From NCBI GenBank assembly GCA_025611195.1, contig GCA_025611195.1_4718.1: DNA of 64,000 bases; one strand, written 5' to 3'. A program made the position numbers and the translations under genes. Every line of letters starts with the position of its first letter. Position 1 is the stretch's first letter. This document shows, piece after piece, positions 52,966 through 61,399 of this stretch. Under the pieces are notes generated by a model. The model had not been told where the DNA came from, made no database searches, and was given only the letters and a program-made list of their open reading frames with translations. The stretch is from a phage.

Positions 52966-52977
52966 TGTACACTCTCT

Positions 52978-52993
52978 AAATTTACGTAAATTT
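52978..52993. promoter_or_regulatory. perfect 16-bp palindrome in divergent intergenic region (candidate operator)
   Basis: aaatttacgtaaattt equals its own reverse complement; centred about 20 nt upstream of the metallopeptidase start codon. Confidence 0.35.
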
Positions 52994-53186
52994 AAGGGCT
53001 AATGGATCGGCTGGCCGCACCAATCACAATGTGTTCGTTGCTATGCAACGGCATTCATAGAAATACCTTTTGACGGTAACATCACCGTTCATACCCCAAG
53101 CGATAAGAGTGGTCGGTTAAAAACAACAGAACGTGGGGATGATATAGAAAATCACCTTTTAACACTTATTACGAGTTTAGCAAGCC

Positions 53187-54938
53187 ATGAGCGAACAAGA
53201 ACGAAAACCTAAGAAGAAACTGCTCGGTATTCAATGTCGACACATCAGCTATAACGAAGCGAACGATGGTAGTAAGAACGACCTCATGATCGCAAAAGAG
53301 ATCATGTTCTTCGATGATAATACGCAAGCGACGAACCTTCGCTTCTTCGAGAATTACAAACGTCCGTTTTGGGTGACGGTAGAGAGTAAACGCAAGAACA
53401 AATATAAAAAGGAAAGCGAGAAGCTCTCGCACGTGCGACGCTACGATGTCCGTCAAAGTGAGCTGGTTGAAAAGATCAGCTCGGTGCTTTATAAAAGACG
53501 TGCTGACGATAACACCCGTTTACAGCAGCTTGCACGGAGTCCCTACCTCTATGGCACGGACGTTAGCGCCAGCTGTTATTTAAAAACCCAATACAATACA
53601 AAATGGCCGGAATACGTCGATAAATTACCCGCGTCTATCGCATGTTTCGATATCGAAACCGATGTTGTCCACGGACACGGTAAGATCGTCTGTATGTCTA
53701 TTACAATGGGATACAATGCGATCCTTTGCTATACCAAGGACTTCGTTGGTCATATTCCGAATGCGATTGAGAAAACCCATGAGAAGATTCGATATTACCT
53801 GGCCGAACGTCTGAACACCAAAGAAGATCCTCATGCGTTCGAAAAATATCAGTACGATGTTCGAATCGTAGAAAGCCCAGCACAAGCGGTCATCCAATGC
53901 ATGCAGAAGGTTCACGAATGGCAGCCGGATTATCTCCTTGGCTGGAATATCGCGTTCGATATTCCGCGTATGCTCCAGGCACTGAACGAGGAAGGGTATC
54001 GTCCCGAGGATGTTTTCTCCGATCCTCGTGTACCACCTAAGTATCGTATTGCTCGCTGGGTACCACCGAAGACCGACAAGGTATCTGCTTCAGGTCGTAA
54101 AACCAACCTTACCCTTGAGCAAACCTGGCCGATGTTTTATACGATGGCCACGTATCAGGTTATGGATGCGATGTGTGGTTATAAGTTCGTTCGTTTAGGA
54201 AGACCGGATGAGGGGAGATACTCACTCGATGCGGTGTTAGAGCGAAATAAATGTCATACGAAATTAAAAGCAATTCCTGGTACAGAGGGGTTCACGGAGC
54301 TTGCGTGGCACGAAGAGATGCAAACGAACCATCAAATCGACTACGGCGTATATAACCTTTGGGATAACCAGGGTATCGAGGCGTTGGACCAGAAAACAAA
54401 AGACTATTCGATGACCATCCCTATTCGTTTGGCAGCATCGGATTTGAAAGATTTCAGTTCTAACCCTAAACGTATCTGCGATAAACTTTTCTTCGTTTAT
54501 CTTAACCGTGGGGAAGTCATGGGATGCACCGCCGACGACATGACCCAGGAAGAAGATAAGTGGGTTATCTCACGAACCGGACATATCGTCACATTGCCAT
54601 GCGATCTCATGGCGGACAACGGCATCCATCTCTTCTGGGATATGCCGAACCTGAGAAGTTATATCCGTCTATTCGTTGCAGACCTCGACATTAGCAGTTC
54701 ATACCCGAATGGGCAGATCCTGTTGAATCTATCCAGAGCATGTGTTTTTCGTGAGCTCTCACGCATTGAAGGCGTCTCTGACTATCAGTTCAGGAAGTTA
54801 GGTATCAACTTTATTACCGGAGGTAAAACGAACGCTGTAGACTTCTGTAGAATCGTTTATAAAGCACCATCGATGTTCGAACTCTTAGAACATTTCGATG
54901 CAACGCGTCCAAAAGGGGAAGCGCGGACCATCGAATGA
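53187..54938 (+). CDS. family-B DNA polymerase, N-terminal fragment (3'-5' exonuclease domain plus motif A)
   Basis: Exo I ACFDIETD, Exo II GWNIAFDIP, Exo III YGVYNLWD, motif A DLDISSSYPN; ORF stops ~75 aa later with no motif B (KxxxNSxYG) or motif C (YGDTDS). Confidence 0.75.
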   Translation: MSEQERKPKKKLLGIQCRHISYNEANDGSKNDLMIAKEIMFFDDNTQATNLRFFENYKRPFWVTVESKRKNKYKKESEKLSHVRRYDVRQSELVEKISSVLYKRRADDNTRLQQLARSPYLYGTDVSASCYLKTQYNTKWPEYVDKLPASIACFDIETDVVHGHGKIVCMSITMGYNAILCYTKDFVGHIPNAIEKTHEKIRYYLAERLNTKEDPHAFEKYQYDVRIVESPAQAVIQCMQKVHEWQPDYLLGWNIAFDIPRMLQALNEEGYRPEDVFSDPRVPPKYRIARWVPPKTDKVSASGRKTNLTLEQTWPMFYTMATYQVMDAMCGYKFVRLGRPDEGRYSLDAVLERNKCHTKLKAIPGTEGFTELAWHEEMQTNHQIDYGVYNLWDNQGIEALDQKTKDYSMTIPIRLAASDLKDFSSNPKRICDKLFFVYLNRGEVMGCTADDMTQEEDKWVISRTGHIVTLPCDLMADNGIHLFWDMPNLRSYIRLFVADLDISSSYPNGQILLNLSRACVFRELSRIEGVSDYQFRKLGINFITGGKTNAVDFCRIVYKAPSMFELLEHFDATRPKGEARTIE

Positions 54939-54985
54939 ATCAAGTATGTTGATCCTCGTTTAACAAAAAGAAAACGCATGCGAAG

Positions 54986-55017
54986 CCCCTCCCCCTGGCG
55001 GAAGCCGGAGGGAGGGG
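54986..55017. terminator. GC-rich hairpin between the DNA polymerase fragment and the small-paralog operon
   Basis: cccctccc-cct-ggc-ggaa-gcc-gga-gggagggg; A-rich upstream, U-rich plus TATG (55027-55030) downstream. Confidence 0.55.
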
Positions 55018-55035
55018 TGGAAGTTTTATGTGTTT

Positions 55036-55485
55036 TTAATTATTGTTGATGGGGTTATCGTCCGGCTTATATTCGATGCCGTAGGCGACGTAACGGTCTG
55101 TCGTATGGACGACAAGCGAGATGGGGAAATCATAATGCGTGGTTTTGTCTCGGACGAGCTGAGTAAAGAGATCCATATAACGTATTAAGTCTTCACTGGT
55201 GTAATCAGAAGGGAAGAAGACGTCGATGGTTATTGAATCTTCATAGAGGCGTATAACCAACTTATCCAGAAGGTCGGCATATTGGTTAGCCGGGGTGACG
55301 TCCAGCTCACAGATATCACGATCTCCTTCGTCTCGTGATACCCACATCATGGTATCCTGTAATGAGGTTTCAAGGATCTCGAAAATGCATTTTGCTGTAA
55401 GTTTTAGTTTATTTGTTACGTCATGGTTAGGTGAATAATGGTCACGGATGTTTTTCACTGCGTCTTTGATAGAGAAAGTCATCAT
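55036..55485 (-). CDS. small paralog family member 1 (149 aa)
   Basis: C-terminal DFPISLVVHTTDRYVAYGIEYKPDDN matches the family FP(I/L)xL...(E/H)YxPD signature. Confidence 0.7.
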   Translation of the reverse strand: MMTFSIKDAVKNIRDHYSPNHDVTNKLKLTAKCIFEILETSLQDTMMWVSRDEGDRDICELDVTPANQYADLLDKLVIRLYEDSITIDVFFPSDYTSEDLIRYMDLFTQLVRDKTTHYDFPISLVVHTTDRYVAYGIEYKPDDNPINNN

Positions 55486-55495
55486 TGATGCTCCT

Positions 55496-56005
55496 TCAAA
55501 TGAAATTAATACGTGCGGCTGTCGAAACGAGTTCGCTTGTAAAGCAATGCTTACCGTCGGTGTTTACCGTGTATGTAAGTTTACAAACCTTAGCGGCAGG
55601 GTTAGCACCGATAACAAGGACGGTCGTCATATCGAACAGTTCCACACGTTGAAGAAATGCCGTATCGGCTACCTTCTGTAAACCGGTTGCTTCAAAATCG
55701 ATGTGGTCGTTAAGAGGCACCAATTGGATTTCAATGCGTTCTTTGAAAAGTTTAAACGTTACTGAAAACCGATGAGGTTCGGTATTAAGCCATAAAGGTC
55801 CACGTTGGAAGTGCTGATATGCTTCATTCGCGGTGTTCTCGAAAACCCAGCAGTCGTGGACAAGAGAAGCCTCTTGTAACGATGATTCCAGGTAGTCAAA
55901 TACCTTGTTTATCGTTTTCTCAAGCATAGGCGCTAGTGAACCAGGGTATCCGGCAAATGCTGCTTCGGCAATCGATTTTATTGATACGATGTTGTTCTGA
56001 CTCAT
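55496..56005 (-). CDS. small paralog family member 2 (about 169 aa)
   Basis: AAGGAA SD then ATG 56005 (track start 56032); architecture resembles neighbours but divergent. Confidence 0.6.
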   Translation of the reverse strand: MSQNNIVSIKSIAEAAFAGYPGSLAPMLEKTINKVFDYLESSLQEASLVHDCWVFENTANEAYQHFQRGPLWLNTEPHRFSVTFKLFKERIEIQLVPLNDHIDFEATGLQKVADTAFLQRVELFDMTTVLVIGANPAAKVCKLTYTVNTDGKHCFTSELVSTAARINFI

Positions 56006-56009
56006 TTCT

Positions 56010-56462
56010 TTATTCCTTGTTGGCTTCTTCAATGTGCTTGGTGTCGTAAGACAAATGCTGAATTAATTTTCTAGGTTCGATGAAAATACGACATGTGATA
56101 AACACATCAGGGTTGTATTGTTCCACGCAACGTCCGAAGGCTCGTTTTGCGGACTGACGCATCAATGTTAATTCCTGATCGTTCATCTCATCATCAAATT
56201 CGATGTGTATCGTGATTTTATCGGGAAATAAATAGATAGAGTAGTCGCTACCGATATCACCGTCGTCAAAACGATAATCGTTGTGGTAATGGTGGAGTTT
56301 ACCTTCGTGTATCGTCTGGTACCACCCAACGATACTATCAAGACCCATACCCAGGCGTCCGAATGCTTGAGTAATAACATCCTCAACGACGGATGCGGGC
56401 GTGGGACCATTGAATAGACGATCTAAGCGCTTTTTCATTGATTTGTCGGTTTTCATGTTCAT
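56010..56462 (-). CDS. small paralog family member 3 (about 150 aa)
   Basis: Track start TTG 56492 lies inside hairpin 56493-56522; AGGAAAAG SD then ATG 56462. C-terminal AKRAFGRCVEQYNPD. Confidence 0.65.
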   Translation of the reverse strand: MNMKTDKSMKKRLDRLFNGPTPASVVEDVITQAFGRLGMGLDSIVGWYQTIHEGKLHHYHNDYRFDDGDIGSDYSIYLFPDKITIHIEFDDEMNDQELTLMRQSAKRAFGRCVEQYNPDVFITCRIFIEPRKLIQHLSYDTKHIEEANKE

Positions 56463-56492
56463 TGTTTCTTTTCCTGTGTAGTCGGTATACAA

Positions 56493-56522
56493 CCCTTCCC
56501 CGGCCTGATGGCTAGGGAAGGG
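56493..56522. terminator. GC-rich hairpin inside the small-paralog operon
   Basis: cccttccc-cggcc-tgat-ggcta-gggaaggg; TATG 56525-56528. Confidence 0.5.
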
Positions 56523-56536
56523 GCTATGCTACGTTG

Positions 56537-56935
56537 TTATGCTTCGCAATCAGCTGAAGACGTCGCGCCTTTCTTACCAGCGATACGCCAAATCCGACAC
56601 GCTGGATAATGGTTAACCTCTAGAGAGCAAGGAATGTTATATTTCTCTTCCAGCGCATAAAGACATTTCGTTAGCTGCTCCAGCGCGTTCTCGTCGTGTC
56701 GTAACGCGTGGTGGCCTAATCGATGTTGGTCGTTCTTTATATACGCCTCGAAGAGAACATGTTGGCGATGTACGCTGACGTTTACAGCCTCGAGTATAGC
56801 TTGGTCGAGCATACGACTAAAGCACATCAACGAGTCAGATACGTTTTCTCGCTTAACCAGATCGATCATGGCGGGAATATACGAATGGTCGATGTTATCG
56901 ATGACCGCTTTAGCGACGGAATCAGCAACGTTCAT
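56537..56935 (-). CDS. small paralog family member 4 (about 132 aa)
   Basis: Track start GTG 56965; AGGGA SD then ATG 56935. Close paralog of 56972-57367 (VAKAVIDNIDH..., EEKYNIPCSLEVN). Confidence 0.7.
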   Translation of the reverse strand: MNVADSVAKAVIDNIDHSYIPAMIDLVKRENVSDSLMCFSRMLDQAILEAVNVSVHRQHVLFEAYIKNDQHRLGHHALRHDENALEQLTKCLYALEEKYNIPCSLEVNHYPACRIWRIAGKKGATSSADCEA

Positions 56936-56971
56936 CTTTTTAATCCCTAGTTTGTTATTGATCACGTATAT

Positions 56972-57367
56972 TTACTCTTTGACGTCAGTTGTCGTTTCGA
57001 CATGCTTCTCACTACTGACGTACCAGAGCAGGTACGCTGGGAAAAGATTGACCTCTAAGCTAAATGGGATATTGTATTTCTCTTCCATTTTACAGAGATG
57101 TTCTTTAATTAAATTTCTCGCGTCTCTGTCACCACGAACAGAGTGCCAGTCTAGTTCTTTGTTCTCCTTTACCAGGACCTCTACGATGATACGTTGCTCG
57201 TGAACCTCGGTTTTCACAGTGAAAAGTAAATCGCTGCTATCAAAACGGGTAAAACGAATGTATGAACCAGGTGTTTTTTCTTGTTTAATAATATCGATCA
57301 TGGTAGAAATGCGCGGATGATCGATGTTGTCGTTAACAGCTTTAACGATGGATTCTACAATGCTCAT
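56972..57367 (-). CDS. small paralog family member 5 (131 aa)
   Basis: IVKAVNDNIDHPRISTMIDIIKQE and EEKYNIPFSLEVN mirror member 4. Confidence 0.7.
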   Translation of the reverse strand: MSIVESIVKAVNDNIDHPRISTMIDIIKQEKTPGSYIRFTRFDSSDLLFTVKTEVHEQRIIVEVLVKENKELDWHSVRGDRDARNLIKEHLCKMEEKYNIPFSLEVNLFPAYLLWYVSSEKHVETTTDVKE

Positions 57368-57399
57368 TTTTTATCCTTAATGTTATCGATTTGGAAATA

Positions 57400-58167
57400 T
57401 TACTTATTTTTGCTTTCTTTATAGACAGTTGTTACCCACGATGGGAAAGCCGGATGGAAACAGAGCGTGAACGTAACTGTCGTATCGTATTTAAACGCGC
57501 AGTTCACTAACCGGGTATCGAACGTTTTCCTTAGACCATCATCATCGTTATCGATGACAGCCATATCTCTTAATATCCCAAGCACGTTAACGCCGTCGAG
57601 TGTCTGGGTTACGACAAGTCGTCGTAATGGCCCGCATGTATAGTCACGTACAAATCCTTTCTTCGGGTCCGATACCCTGTTTAACGCATCGTGATTTTTG
57701 ATGAATTCATCGGCGATACAATAGGTTTGTTCCCTTGCTTTATCGGGATCGTATTCTGCTAATAGTTCCTTCGTGTCGAACGTTATCATGTTATTATCAT
57801 TCGATTCAGAAGGGAAACATAAAACTAAACGAACAGGGTATTCGTATTGATCTGTTCTTGTTTCGAAAGCATTAGCTAGACACGGCTTGTATGCCTTTGC
57901 GTCGACATTGTCCAAACATGGATGCAATAATGCATGAATAACGGCACCATCGTCAGTTAAACCGAATTCCAGAAATTGTACTTTATCAGTATCCGCTACG
58001 GTTTTCTGAAGATACGCTTTACCGTTTACGATATCGGTATCCCACATATCGTCGTTTAACGATTCTTCAAACTTATCGAATATATGGTTTACGAGATTGA
58101 CGAGTTCATCAATACGGCACTGTTGGTTGAATTCGATTAATCGCTGAACTTTATCTTTGATAGACAT
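57400..58167 (-). CDS. small paralog family member 6 (255 aa, apparently two-domain)
   Basis: YEYPVRLVLCFPS...EYDPD signature plus a second VTFTLCFHP strand. Confidence 0.7.
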   Translation of the reverse strand: MSIKDKVQRLIEFNQQCRIDELVNLVNHIFDKFEESLNDDMWDTDIVNGKAYLQKTVADTDKVQFLEFGLTDDGAVIHALLHPCLDNVDAKAYKPCLANAFETRTDQYEYPVRLVLCFPSESNDNNMITFDTKELLAEYDPDKAREQTYCIADEFIKNHDALNRVSDPKKGFVRDYTCGPLRRLVVTQTLDGVNVLGILRDMAVIDNDDDGLRKTFDTRLVNCAFKYDTTVTFTLCFHPAFPSWVTTVYKESKNK

Positions 58168-58169
58168 GA

Positions 58170-58628
58170 TTACCCCTTAGTTTCTTCTTCGTCTGGAGAG
58201 TACTCCATTGTGTAGAATTCATAACCATCGGAAAACTTGAGTGTTAATGTAATAGGGAAATCGCACGGCATAGCTGATTTCGTAAACGCGTTATTAGCAA
58301 CATCAGCCAACCGACGTATAGCATCAGTCCCGCTGACGCTGAACGGTAGTTGTATGTTGATAAGGATGCGGTGCTTGTAAACATGGAAAACAACGGTACT
58401 GTCAAGATAAACGCTATGGAACGGTATTGTTGGGATGCGTTCCACGATGGTAAAATACGTCCCGTCATTATCGCTATGTCCCATCGACCAAATATCGGAT
58501 TTGCGTAGATTTTGTTTGAGGGATTCGATACTTCGAGTGACGGTATCAACAACAGGCGTGACGTAAGTGTCTTTATGCGAGTCGAAAAGTTCGTTGACGT
58601 TAGATTCGAATGAATACATTGTTGCCAT
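58170..58628 (-). CDS. small paralog family member 7 (152 aa)
   Basis: QLPFSVSGTDAIRRLADVANNAF...CDFPITLTLKFSDGYEFYTMEYSPDEE; start ATG overlaps upstream stop (TAATG). Confidence 0.75.
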   Translation of the reverse strand: MATMYSFESNVNELFDSHKDTYVTPVVDTVTRSIESLKQNLRKSDIWSMGHSDNDGTYFTIVERIPTIPFHSVYLDSTVVFHVYKHRILINIQLPFSVSGTDAIRRLADVANNAFTKSAMPCDFPITLTLKFSDGYEFYTMEYSPDEEETKG

Positions 58629-59089
58629 TATTCTACCTCTTTCTTCATCTTCATCGGAACAGAGAGTGCTGTTATCTCTGTTCCATTATCCGGTTCATAC
58701 TCCAATGTAACGAGATTGCAGCCATCCGATAATTCATAATCGATCGCTAGGGGGAACGAGACACCGTGCGACTTTATGCATTTACCAAATGTCTCGTTGG
58801 CTGTATACATTAGAAGTTGCTTTGCGGCAAGCCCGTTTACGCTGAAAGGTAATCGTGCTGTCGCAGCGATACGATTATTGTAAACTCTGATATCGGTGAT
58901 ATCTACAATCGTAGCATTGCCGTGTTGTGTCGTTGGAACGGATAGGCTGTAGAAGTAAGGTTCGGAGTCGGAATCGGGCTCGTTAAATAATTCCCAGCAC
59001 CCGTCCTCCTGCAATCTTACTTCGAGTATTTCAAAGCTTTTAATTATCGATTCTACCAGCTGCTCACCGTAAGAATCCCATGTCGTCAT
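58628..59089 (-). CDS. small paralog family member 8 (about 153 aa)
   Basis: Track start GTG 59107; AAGGTG SD then ATG 59089. RLPFSVNGLAAKQLL...VSFPLAIDYELSDGCNLVTLEYEPDNG. Confidence 0.7.
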   Translation of the reverse strand: MTTWDSYGEQLVESIIKSFEILEVRLQEDGCWELFNEPDSDSEPYFYSLSVPTTQHGNATIVDITDIRVYNNRIAATARLPFSVNGLAAKQLLMYTANETFGKCIKSHGVSFPLAIDYELSDGCNLVTLEYEPDNGTEITALSVPMKMKKEVE

Positions 59090-59159
59090 TTTTAACACCT
59101 TCGACACCTTTTAACCGATGCGTGCCCCACCTAACAAGGGACACGATATCGTTGATTAA

Positions 59160-59654
59160 TTACTCTTCTGTGTTTTCATTGTCAGGATCGTAATGGAATT
59201 CGAACAGCCCTGAACCGTCATGTCCGTTGATTGTTAGTATAACGGGCATATCGAATCCTCGGACGCGCGAATGAAAACACTGTGCTAATTTTAGTTTGGC
59301 GTATGCCGCTATTTCATTGACGGCAATACACGACTCACCTGTTATACTCAGTATAACGTCGATACTAACAACGTTGTCGTGCAACGCAAAACGCCAGCGA
59401 TCGATACGATTATTATCTTTAGCAGCTGTCTCGTTTACGAGATAGACTTTATCGTCAACTGACAAAGCAGGGCTCCAGCAACGTTCGTTTATTAAATTCG
59501 CCTGGAGTTTTAGTATCGTCTGATCAATAATATCCCAACACGCAACCAGTGTGGTGTCGGGCACTGAACAGAGAAGGGCGAGCACTTTATCCTTTATTTT
59601 AAGTGCTTCCACAGAGCGTCCGCAAATACCATGCATTTCAACCTTCTTATTCAT
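59160..59654 (-). CDS. small paralog family member 9 (about 164 aa)
   Basis: Track start GTG 59660; AGAGGTG SD then ATG 59654. ...FDMPVILTINGHDGSGLFEFHYDPDNE. Confidence 0.7.
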   Translation of the reverse strand: MNKKVEMHGICGRSVEALKIKDKVLALLCSVPDTTLVACWDIIDQTILKLQANLINERCWSPALSVDDKVYLVNETAAKDNNRIDRWRFALHDNVVSIDVILSITGESCIAVNEIAAYAKLKLAQCFHSRVRGFDMPVILTINGHDGSGLFEFHYDPDNENTEE

Positions 59655-59697
59655 ATTCACCTCTTTCTTAATCTAAATGTTAGTTGGGGTGGGATGC

Positions 59698-60300
59698 TTA
59701 CATGCTTTCTAGCATATTGACGATCATGGAACCCATACCGAAACTCGGTCTCTCGCCAATGTACTCAGCAAGCTGACGATGAACGTCTTTTGGATTCCCT
59801 TCTTCACCGTCGGCGTCGATGTAAACCGAAAAAGAAAATGAATCGCAATCCACGCTGATAACCAGACGACGCTCATTGCGTTCCTTGAGTGTGTCGACAA
59901 TAGCTGCTTTCAGTACTGCGATCGCGTTCATCGCGTGCAAGATATCTCCATCGGGTTTCGGCAGATCGATCTTTTCTTTCAGGTCGATATTGATGTTGGT
60001 TACAATTGGATTGAGGTCGACCTTGACATAATCGTTAGGGTACATGCGAATAATCGCACGATCGATATCTGAACCGTAAAAGTCAACACGCGGCTTTAAC
60101 ACTTCTTTGTTTGGATCCATGTTTTCATCCATACCCGCCTGTAGAAAGCGTTCTACGTTATCCAGTTCACGATAGATTGACGCTTCGATTTCTTTCAGAT
60201 AGTTGGCTGCGGTTTCATGTTCTTTACGCAGCTCGTCTTTAAGGAGCTGTACGGTGGTTTCACTGGAACGAATGCTGTTTGCGAACTGGGTAATTGACAT
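59698..60300 (-). CDS. hypothetical small protein (200 aa)
   Basis: Track ORF extends to 60390 across terminator 60357-60377; AAGGAA SD then ATG 60300. Confidence 0.65.
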   Translation of the reverse strand: MSITQFANSIRSSETTVQLLKDELRKEHETAANYLKEIEASIYRELDNVERFLQAGMDENMDPNKEVLKPRVDFYGSDIDRAIIRMYPNDYVKVDLNPIVTNINIDLKEKIDLPKPDGDILHAMNAIAVLKAAIVDTLKERNERRLVISVDCDSFSFSVYIDADGEEGNPKDVHRQLAEYIGERPSFGMGSMIVNMLESM

Positions 60301-60349
60301 ATCGAATTCCTTAAATTCTCTTGAGTTCAATTGATGATGAAAAGCTGTT

Positions 60350-60377
60350 AAAAAAATGGTGGGGTTCTCCCCCACCA
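60350..60377 (-). terminator. canonical intrinsic terminator (minus strand): hairpin plus U7
   Basis: Minus-strand RNA would read GGUGGGG-gagaa-CCCCACC followed by UUUUUUU (plus 60350-60356). Confidence 0.65.
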
Positions 60378-60400
60378 AAACGTCAGACACACGCAGAAAA

Positions 60401-60823
60401 TCAATTCAGTGATGCATACAACGCATAACGACTGTAGATTTCAACCGCTGGTCCATTATGCGTTAACAGACCATCTCGGTTGTAGTATTGGAAAAATGAA
60501 TAACGTTTGTCGAAGTGATAAACGAAAGCAATGTCTTTGCCAAGACCTGTGATGTGCGGTCTGTTTTTATCTAGCAATGCTTTGACTTTTAACAGTGTTG
60601 CCGCACGCGCTTTAACATTAGGGATTAATCCATCACAGTCGATATAAATCGTGTAACCTGTTTCTGATGCTGCGACAGTTGTATTGCGATTGACGCGAAA
60701 GATTTTTGTTTTGTATGTATCATCTTCAAGGATTGGGTTTTGTTTTTCGTATTTTCGTTTACGCAGAAATTCTACAACGGTAATATAGTTAGCGGTAATA
60801 TGTCCGGTTATAGCTTGTAACAT
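60401..60823 (-). CDS. hypothetical small protein (140 aa)
   Basis: ATG 60823 is about 65-95 nt downstream of conserved promoter-like motif 60889-60918; followed by a canonical terminator. Confidence 0.65.
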   Translation of the reverse strand: MLQAITGHITANYITVVEFLRKRKYEKQNPILEDDTYKTKIFRVNRNTTVAASETGYTIYIDCDGLIPNVKARAATLLKVKALLDKNRPHITGLGKDIAFVYHFDKRYSFFQYYNRDGLLTHNGPAVEIYSRYALYASLN

Positions 60824-60867
60824 CTTGACATCCTCTTATATTGGATTGATTACAGTTATCTTAAATA

Positions 60868-60895
60868 GGTGATAAGATATCTTGCTCTTATCACC
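60868..60895 (-). promoter_or_regulatory. hairpin overlapping the 3' end of motif copy C
   Basis: ggtgataaga-tatcttgc-tcttatcacc, 10-bp stem; stem differs from copy A by paired substitutions. Confidence 0.4.
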
Positions 60896-60918
60896 TTAGT
60901 AATATAGTCGTGAAATAG
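60889..60918 (-). promoter_or_regulatory. conserved promoter-like motif, copy C (contains TATATTAC on minus strand)
   Basis: Minus strand reads AGTCTATTTCACGACTATATTACTAAGGTGATAA, about 29 of 33 positions identical to copy A; upstream of ATG 60823. Confidence 0.5.
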
Positions 60919-60951
60919 ACTGCGTTAACAAGAAATAAAAACAGCATAAAA

Positions 60952-60989
60952 CCTCCTCCCCCATCCTTCAAGAGGACGGTGGGAAGAGG
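60952..60989. terminator. imperfect GC-rich hairpin
   Basis: cctcctccc-ccatcc-ttcaaga-ggacgg-t-gggaagagg with mismatches; minus-strand side followed by UUUUAUG and U-rich sequence. Confidence 0.4.
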
Positions 60990-60997
60990 GAGAGAGA

Positions 60998-61399
60998 TTA
61001 AATGTCGTGGACGGCAATGCCGTTTAACCAGCAATACAGCTTAACGCGACACGGATATCGCTTCGTTGCAGCAGCCATTTCATCGCGTAAACGCTGGTAG
61101 ATTTCATCCTGGTGTTCACGTTCAATGGGGTAATCAGCCCAACATTCGATCATGACGTCACCATTAGTCAAAATCGTCGTACGCATCCTGTCCTGGACAC
61201 GACGATCTTTCCCAGCATTAGGGAAATACATTCCTTCAGTACGAATAAGGTCGCCACAGGGCATGACTAACCATTCGTTCGTTTTGCTGGTATTCTTATA
61301 ATCCAATACAGCTTGCATTGCGGTGTCAACGCTAAAAGAAACATAATTCCAAACGGGGGTCCAACGATAGATTGCAGGTTGTTCAAGTGTTTCGTTCAT
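60998..61399 (-). CDS. hypothetical small protein (133 aa)
   Basis: AGGAAAAG SD before ATG 61399; TATG 49 nt upstream; bounded by hairpins on both sides. Confidence 0.65.
   Translation of the reverse strand: MNETLEQPAIYRWTPVWNYVSFSVDTAMQAVLDYKNTSKTNEWLVMPCGDLIRTEGMYFPNAGKDRRVQDRMRTTILTNGDVMIECWADYPIEREHQDEIYQRLRDEMAAATKRYPCRVKLYCWLNGIAVHDI

Follow-up and report, generated by a model that had tools for sequence, protein, structure and literature searches.

The open reading frame (ORF) at 53187..54938 on the plus strand of the window (the whole 64,000-nucleotide stretch of phage DNA that was analyzed) very probably encodes a complete and functional protein, DNAP-N, the N-terminal one of the two subunits that make up the family-B replicative DNA polymerase of a Goslar-like phage. 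This assignment is based on its homologs and motifs, on a split point that is conserved, on purifying selection, and on the co-occurrence of the two polymerase genes. The proper annotation would be "DNA polymerase, N-terminal subunit," and not a truncated gene, a pseudogene, or a frameshift. A polymerase in two pieces is carried by all phiKZ-like nucleus-forming jumbo phages as a defining trait that has been on record since 2012, and there is nothing new in the split itself; thus, the finding is real but ordinary.

The ORF runs from ATG to TGA, encodes 583 amino acids, and comprises an N-terminal domain, a 3'-5' exonuclease domain, and, carrying motif A, the first segment of the palm. All of the motifs named in the original prediction were present in the order claimed when read from the translated sequence, and all lie on the plus strand: Exo I (FDIETD, residues 154 to 159, 53646..53663), with D155 and E157; Exo II (GWNIAFDIP, residues 252 to 260, 53940..53966), with N254 and D258; Exo III (YGVYNLWD, residues 386 to 393, 54342..54365), with Y389 and D393; and motif A (DLDISSSYPN, residues 499 to 508, 54681..54710), with D499, D501, Y506, and P507. 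As had also been stated, the ORF ends 75 amino acids beyond the last motif-A residue and lacks the fingers, motif B (KxxxNSxYG), and motif C (DTDS). A six-frame regular-expression search of the 64-kb window for KxxxNSxYG-like or xDTDS motifs returned 0 ORFs. The C-terminal tail (54711..54935, plus strand) is predicted to be helical, gives a low-confidence model when folded alone, and would correspond to a palm segment and an interface with the C-terminal subunit. Weak profile alignments, together with residue arithmetic on RB69, suggest that the chain breaks once the palm segment downstream of motif A is complete, either where the fingers begin or slightly upstream of that point.

Searches with the single protein gave only a sub-threshold match to an exonuclease domain in Pfam (16 bits versus a cutoff of 23) and a chance intein match in the PDB (E = 0.51). 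The single-sequence PDB search was insufficient, and the match to RB69 was reached with the family profile, which was collinear with RB69 gp43 over Exo I/II, Exo III, and motif A (E = 8.9e-9). In that alignment, Exo II corresponded to WNVESFDIP, Exo III to YISYNIIDV, and motif A to FDLTSLYPS. The 583-amino-acid protein also matched PHROG 3011, annotated as DNA polymerase, from end to end (E = 4.7e-178, positions 5 to 568 of 576). An AlphaFold2 model of the protein had a mean pLDDT of 87.5, and the best Foldseek matches of this model were RB69, T4, Pol epsilon, and E. coli Pol II, with E values of about 1e-12 over some 450 aligned columns. The confidently modeled part, residues 1 to 460, covers the N-terminal and exonuclease module, with pLDDT values of >90, compared with 37 to 89 at residues 460 to 583. 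Low confidence in a tail modeled on its own is expected if the tail folds against a partner.

The search for homologs of the N half yielded 209 close homologs and 793 library matches, and 265 relatives were retrieved. These came from many host genera and had a median length of 570 amino acids, and the tail, counted from the start of motif A, had a median length of about 80 amino acids with a minimum of 70. Judged by these sequences, members of this protein family are normally about 580 amino acids long. In an alignment of 79 relatives, D155, E157, Y389, D393, D499, D501, Y506, and P507 were invariant, while N254 and D258 were kept in at least 90%. The split point, which had been proposed for comparison with related phages, was the same in all relatives examined. 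None of the 265 N-half relatives contained fingers, motif B, or motif C, and no fused full-length relative was found among the 209 close homologs, the best 150 of the 793 library representatives, or 112 homologs of the C half. Three unusually long relatives were considered as fused forms and rejected: the extension of an 894-amino-acid outlier (P0238) was merely acidic and held no Pfam domain, and the additions to the 682- and 699-amino-acid proteins were N-terminal, one of them being a DUF4326 domain.

The window was 95.6% identical at the nucleotide level to Escherichia phage Goslar, a phiKZ-like nucleus-forming jumbo phage whose genome has genes for the nuclear shell protein gp246 and the tubulin PhuZ, and the gene order around the DNAP-N ORF was the same in both. 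By this similarity, the window comes from a Goslar relative within the phiKZ-like group Chimalliviridae. The Goslar annotation additionally lists a large ribonuclease gene, gp190. The same gene in Goslar, the closest sequenced phage, is gp068 (YP_009820753.1, annotated as DNA polymerase, 499 amino acids), to which the window ORF was 99.8% identical at the amino acid level over residues 1 to 499. Codon comparison with Goslar showed 82 synonymous and 2 nonsynonymous differences, and the tail at 54711..54935 carried a single nonsynonymous difference, G577E. Exact matches to the protein were found on 23 contigs, the closest of which was 98% identical to the window and none of which was identical to it; the identical protein is encoded on contigs with DNA differences of 2.6 to 4.5%. 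On the codon comparison, the gene is under strong purifying selection.

The missing half of the polymerase, for which a search of the rest of the genome had been suggested, was found in relatives and not in the 64-kb window. In Goslar it is gp244, a protein of 717 amino acids encoded about 95 kb from gp068, which matched Pfam PF20286, "divergent family B DNA polymerase," with an E value of 2.4e-204. This protein contains a motif-B-like KLDNNSLSG and an SDTDS motif C, and motif A is absent from the C half. Invariant residues in the gp244 family were R122 and K126 of the fingers, K152, N156, and G160 of motif B, and D405-T406-D407-S408, in which D405 and D407 belong to motif C. The gp244 profile matched the fingers and KKRY regions of the RB69, vaccinia, and Pol delta polymerases, although these alignments were weak. 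Relatives of the C half ranged from 687 to 796 amino acids and were never fused (112 C-half homologs). The Goslar annotation lists only the two halves, gp068 and gp244, and nowhere a family-B polymerase of full length. Phage records containing the two halves numbered 291 and 306, the counts for each host genus were the same, and the halves occur together in some 290 phage genomes. Both genes shared a contig in three cases, Goslar and two IMG/VR contigs, each of them intron bearing. The N-half contigs (235 to 237 kb) and the contigs with the C-half representative P0121 were different records.

The original prediction had placed a hairpin and then convergent minus-strand genes directly downstream of the ORF, and fold energies and the ORF map confirmed both. 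The region from 54936 to 55040 folded with -43.8 kcal/mol (z = -5.4), a value reached by 0 of 200 shuffled sequences. The core stem of the GC-rich hairpin lies between the convergent genes at 54985..55018, with T-rich runs on both strands, and the minus-strand genes start at 55036. This hairpin was missed by a simple terminator scan; it is probably a bidirectional intrinsic terminator. Upstream, the DNAP-N gene is preceded by a divergent intergenic region of 221 bp (52966..53186, from the ORF map), in which a sigma-70 promoter scan performed no better than on shuffled sequences. phiKZ-like phages transcribe with their own RNA polymerases, which are outside the scope of such a scan.

The Goslar copy of the gene differs from the window allele by a 1,762-nucleotide group I intron located between the D499 and L500 codons, inside motif A. 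The intron carries gp069, a NUMOD1/HNH_3 endonuclease gene. RefSeq gp068 is truncated because the intron interrupts the gene and exon 2 is unannotated; after removal of the intron, the Goslar product has 583 amino acids, with two differences from the window product. RefSeq gp068 stops at the intron, and the intronless allele gives the true 583-amino-acid product for the Goslar lineage. In the window, the empty insertion site lies between 54683 and 54684 on the plus strand, as located by comparison with Goslar. An intron or intein within the window copy, which the original prediction had asked to be ruled out, was excluded: the gene was collinear with the spliced Goslar gene and had no extra insert relative to the family, Pfam detected no intein domain in the protein, and no Rfam family reached its gathering score anywhere in the 64-kb window. 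Mobile introns have repeatedly inserted into motif A of the N subunit, in distant family members as well, and as a result, automated gene calling will keep yielding false "truncated polymerases" at this site.

The empty site lies within a synonymously recoded stretch (54657..54701, plus strand). Compared with the intron-bearing Goslar allele, this stretch had 18 differences in 45 nucleotides, all of them synonymous, while the mean for the gene was 2.4 per 45 nucleotides (standard deviation, 2.9). The changes include switches between serine codon families and GAC in place of Goslar's GAT at the splice-site codon. The site reads GAC CTC GAC ATT AGC AGT TCA in the window, compared with GAC CTC GAT ATA TCT TCA AGC in another intronless haplotype. 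One possible, although doubtful, explanation is that the recoding represents selected resistance of the intronless allele to the NUMOD1/HNH homing endonuclease of the Goslar intron. If true, a mobile intron and an essential catalytic motif would be in continuing conflict inside a single phage species. A less remarkable explanation is that the block arrived together with the intron, as a co-conversion tract from a divergent donor.

The original prediction left a choice between a polymerase split in trans and a truncated one. The first part stood, with a separate gp244 in Goslar, and the second did not, given the length of the family and the purifying selection. A truncated remnant or pseudogene of a full-length polymerase, with replication performed by another, intact enzyme, would fit an ORF without fingers, motif B, and motif C and the sub-threshold Pfam score. 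However, across 265 relatives, which span many host genera, the length and end point were conserved, the catalytic residues were invariant across 79 relatives, synonymous differences from Goslar far outnumbered nonsynonymous ones, and an unchanged protein was encoded by contigs that differ in DNA. The Goslar annotation, with gp068 and gp244 only, likewise offers no intact enzyme to take over, and we consider the remnant explanation highly improbable. We give practically no credence to the idea that a downstream polymerase domain is hidden by a frameshift, whether a sequencing or assembly error or a programmed event, or by readthrough. The abrupt end of the ORF, and nothing else, speaks for such an event, but at least 23 contigs, independent of one another and from different samples, have the same stop, hairpin, and convergent genes. 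Neither motif B nor motif C was found in any downstream frame or anywhere in the window, and past the TGA the frame enters the probable terminator hairpin and meets the next stop within about 110 nucleotides.

There remains a very slim chance that the protein works mainly on its own as a proofreading exonuclease, in the manner of a DnaQ-like accessory, outside the polymerase active site. The exonuclease residues are intact, and the part of the model that can be trusted (residues 1 to 460) is the N-terminal and exonuclease module. A pure exonuclease, however, would not need the invariant D499, D501, Y506, and P507 of motif A or a tail conserved at about 80 amino acids. Against this role also stand a C half that has motifs B and C yet no motif A of its own and the PhiKZ halves, which form a stable 1:1 core polymerase (PMC13648687).

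In the two-subunit polymerase that we favor, DNAP-N would supply the N-terminal domain, the proofreading 3'-5' exonuclease (Exo I to III), and the palm segment with the motif-A aspartates. The separately encoded DNAP-C, the ortholog of Goslar gp244, would supply the fingers, motif C, the KxY segment, and the thumb. The two chains would assemble 1:1, and a composite polymerase active site would result, in which one chain contributes the metal-binding carboxylate of motif A and the other chain those of motif C. Both the assembly and the polymerase activity of the Goslar-like pair are proposed by analogy with the published PhiKZ complex.

The closest counterpart among the known systems is PhiKZ, whose gp82 (PHIKZ082) is the ortholog of the window protein, with 38.8% identity over 95% of the length. 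In PMC5105663, the phiKZ "split subunit DNA polymerase" is credited to Cornelissen et al. 2012, and a 2.1-Å cryo-electron microscopy structure of the stable 1:1 DNAP-N:DNAP-C complex of PhiKZ has been described in a preprint (Basu et al. 2026, PMC13648687). The N subunits of PhiKZ and of the window share the PHROG family, the domain content, the end point, a separate C half (PF20286), and the phage group. PhiKZ differs in its host, in its genus (Phikzvirus versus Goslarvirus), and in the length of its N subunit (638 versus 583 amino acids), and complex formation, the structure, and a third subunit, Rhc, are specific to the PhiKZ work.

Other split family-B polymerases were more distant. In Aeromonas and Acinetobacter phages related to T4, the polymerase is split into gp43A and gp43B, which co-purify and are active (Petrov et al. 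2006 and 2010, as summarized in PMC3061061 and PMC2988022). Like the polymerase proposed here, these form a family-B replicative enzyme from two polypeptides, and mobile endonuclease genes are likewise associated with the polymerase gene. However, their break is at the fingertip, between the two finger helices, whereas the window protein probably breaks before the fingers, and their cistrons are 2 bp to 3 kb apart, compared with tens of kilobases for the phiKZ-like halves. Additionally, the split is fixed across the whole phage family in phiKZ-like phages, unlike that of gp43A/gp43B. The archaeal PolB of Methanothermobacter thermautotrophicus (Kelman et al. 1999, as described in PMC3061061) is also a two-subunit family-B enzyme, with genes 85 kb apart, but it is split within the palm domain, at a point about 83 residues C-terminal to that of an engineered Pfu fingers split, and its sequence similarity to the window protein does not go beyond that of the whole polymerase family. 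The gp43 of RB69 and T4, although an unsplit single chain of about 900 amino acids with an identity of only about 14% to the window protein, was the top match, by both structure and profile, to the N-terminal, exonuclease, and motif-A parts.

The open reading frame at 53187..54938 on the plus strand (ATG to TGA, 583 aa) is the N-terminal half (DNAP-N) of a family-B DNA polymerase split in trans, the C half (DNAP-C) of which is known from Escherichia phage vB_EcoM_Goslar and its relatives. Direct reading of the sequence recovered the four motifs of the original prediction in the order claimed: Exo I (FDIETD, residues 154-159), Exo II (GWNIAFDIP, residues 252-260), Exo III (YGVYNLWD, residues 386-393) and motif A (DLDISSSYPN, residues 499-508). 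As had also been predicted, the frame stops about 75 aa past motif A, with 75 residues remaining. The gene looks odd at first sight because a Pfam search with the single window sequence returned only an exonuclease match, and that below threshold. The exonuclease and motif-A motifs are no chance matches. Alignment of 79 relatives showed D155, E157, Y389, D393, D499, D501, Y506 and P507 to be invariant, and N254 and D258 were kept in at least 90%. The profile of these relatives matched RB69 gp43 (E = 8.9e-9) in three collinear pieces that correspond to the Exo I/II, Exo III and motif-A regions. The AlphaFold2 model of the protein (mean pLDDT, 87.5; pTM, 0.82) had RB69, T4, Pol epsilon and E. 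coli Pol II polymerases as its top Foldseek matches, with E values of about 1e-12 over some 450 aligned columns.

The gene had 95.6% DNA identity to its Goslar counterpart, and flanking genes on both sides were common to the window and Goslar, a 237-kb jumbo phage related to phiKZ that encodes a nuclear shell protein, the tubulin PhuZ and multisubunit RNA polymerases. The orthologs Goslar gp068 and PhiKZ PHIKZ082 (38.8% identity over 95% of the length of the window protein) are both annotated "DNA polymerase." The exact window protein was also found on contigs deposited in the NCBI genome assemblies GCA_041200565.1 (L007/L022) and GCA_044979225.1 (L010/L026), the contig of the latter being near complete and phage sized at 235,844 bp, and in many metagenome runs; thus, Goslar-like phages occur widely in public data and are not confined to the one named isolate. 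The fold and the ORF map bore out the predicted hairpin and minus-strand genes directly 3' of the ORF. The core stem of the GC-rich hairpin lies at 54985-55018, with T-rich runs on both strands (fold of 54936-55040, -43.8 kcal/mol; z = -5.4), and the convergent gene run begins at 55036. Some 12 small minus-strand ORFs of 130 to 255 aa occupy 55036-61399, several of them paralogous (56537-56965 versus 56972-57367, 37% identity, E = 2e-31; 58170-58628 versus 58628-59107, E = 1e-16). Gene content here varied among contigs otherwise 96 to 98% identical to the window, which makes this a variable region adjoining the polymerase gene.

An intron or intein was ruled out in the window copy: no Rfam family reached its gathering score anywhere in the window, no intein domain was found in the protein, and the ORF was collinear with its family. 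The Goslar gene is interrupted. Its DNA match to the window gene stopped at motif A and restarted about 1.8 kb on, the interruption (L001, NC_048170, 9498-11259, 1762 nt) lying inside motif A between the codons for D499 (GAT) and L500. It holds the NUMOD1/HNH_3 endonuclease gene gp069 and a group I intron core (RF00028; 44.7 bits, E = 1.5e-9, just under the gathering score of 50), and its boundaries, with U as the last exon base and G as the last intron base, match group I expectation. Predicted splicing restores DLDISSSYPN and a 583-aa product; therefore, RefSeq gp068 (499 aa, ending FVAD) is exon 1 only. Both the intron and exon 2 (L001, 11260-11514) are unannotated. The corresponding empty site in the window allele is at 54683/54684 on the plus strand.

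Approximately 22 proteins among the 265 relatives, drawn from a diverse set of phiKZ-like phages, terminate precisely at HVAD(LD) (P0042, P0055, P0076, P0080, P0116, P0120 and others), and in Pseudomonas phage HPP-Temi (L033, 3501-7166) the gene order is DNA polymerase, HNH endonuclease, DNA polymerase. These observations indicate that distant relatives also use this site and that motif A is a recurrent point of mobile-intron insertion, which yields false calls of truncated genes. In four other relatives (P0094, P0104, P0341 and P0357), the protein stops at a conserved "..DWI" some 40 residues before motif A, near window residues 457-465 (nucleotides about 54555-54580); this position is a possible second site of intron insertion. 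Around the empty site, at 54657-54701, 18 of 45 nucleotides differ from Goslar, all synonymously and including serine codon-family switches, compared with a mean of 2.4 (sd, 2.9) differences per 45 nt elsewhere in the gene; this stretch holds 18 of the 93 nucleotide differences from the spliced Goslar gene. Codon 499 read GAC wherever the intron was absent and GAT wherever it was present. The stretch may be either a co-conversion tract or the outcome of selection for a cleavage-resistant homing site.

The original prediction had left the polymerase as either split in trans or truncated; the split reading stood and truncation did not, given the length norm, the lack of any fused form among the relatives, a separate C-half gene and the co-occurrence of the halves. 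The window protein matched PHROG 3011 ("DNA polymerase") over positions 5-568 of 576. Two very large protein collections supplied the 265 relatives, in which median length was 570 aa, the tail from the start of motif A was conserved (median, 80 aa; minimum, 70) and the split point was shared. Fingers, motif B and motif C were absent from all 265, with no fused form among them; the single long outlier (894 aa) carried an acidic extension without a Pfam domain. Codon differences from the spliced Goslar gene were 82 synonymous and 2 nonsynonymous, only one of the latter falling in the tail past motif A, and this pattern of selection agrees with the split. Contigs retrieved by exact protein match encoded the identical protein in DNA 2.6 to 4.5% different from the window. 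Because at least 23 independent contigs share the stop codon and the sequence context that follows it, a sequencing frameshift was ruled out.

When the whole 64-kb window was searched in six frames, none of its ORFs bore a motif-B-like or DTDS-like signature; the partner gene of the window phage would lie elsewhere in its genome, outside the window. In Goslar, the missing half is gp244 (174314..176467, 717 aa), which lies two genes away from the gene for the nuclear shell and some 95 kb from gp068; it matches PF20286, "Divergent Family B DNA polymerase" (E = 2.4e-204), and contains KLDNNSLSG and SDTDS. Across 63 relatives of the C half, R122, K126, K152, N156, G160, D405-T406-D407-S408, K484 and Y486 were invariant. 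Their alignment to the RB69 segments holding R482/K486 and the motif-B lysine was weak, and that to the RB69 KKRY segment was clearer; the C half also matched the fingers regions of the vaccinia, Pol delta and Pol zeta polymerases. C-half relatives were 687 to 796 aa long, none fused to an exonuclease part. Both halves lay on the same contig in Goslar and two further IMG/VR contigs. A tblastn search placed the two halves in 291 and 306 phage records; broken down by host genus, the counts agreed exactly (81 for Pseudomonas, 62 for Erwinia, 24 for Salmonella, 23 for Vibrio, and others). In the genomes checked, the two genes were tens of kilobases apart. Bacillus phage AR9 g152 (L032, 2559-4484, 641 aa), annotated "DNA-polymerase catalytic subunit," matched the C half only, weakly (22.5% identity, E = 1e-9), so the origin of the two-gene arrangement may precede that of the nucleus-forming phages.

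DNAP-N would supply the proofreading exonuclease together with the N-terminal domain and the first palm segment, where the motif-A aspartates lie; the fingers and thumb, motif C and the KxY segment would come from its partner, so that the active site would be built from two chains. In the family profile, motif A aligned with RB69 FDLTSLYPS, which places D501 at about RB69 D411; the RB69 fingers start near residue 469. Partner residues R122/K126 fall at about RB69 R482/K486 in the first finger helix in a weak profile alignment, and the tail after D501 is 82 residues. From these weak alignments, we infer a break behind the palm segment that follows motif A, either where the fingers start or shortly before. 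Confidence in the AlphaFold2 model was high over residues 1-460 and low over 460-583, which fits, without proving, a tail that folds only against the partner. Physical assembly of the halves would be as in PhiKZ, where, according to a 2026 preprint (PMC13648687), DNAP-N and DNAP-C form a stable 1:1 core; the same preprint presents a cryo-EM structure at 2.1 A and describes a third subunit, Rhc, which combines an RNase H domain with a clamp-like one.

The split has already been described for phiKZ-like nucleus-forming phages, and the window adds another member, about 95% identical to a sequenced phage. PMC5105663 credits the phiKZ "split subunit DNA polymerase" to Cornelissen et al. 2012, and Iyer et al. 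2021 (PMC7824862) list the divergent family-B polymerase among the signatures of the group. According to earlier work, the break in gp43 of T4-related Aeromonas and Acinetobacter phages is at the fingertip, and 2 bp to 3 kb separate the cistrons (PMC3061061, PMC2988022); the Methanothermobacter enzyme is split in the palm, with genes 85 kb apart (PMC3061061). In contrast to both, the break in the window family probably lies before the fingers and is fixed across the whole phage family.
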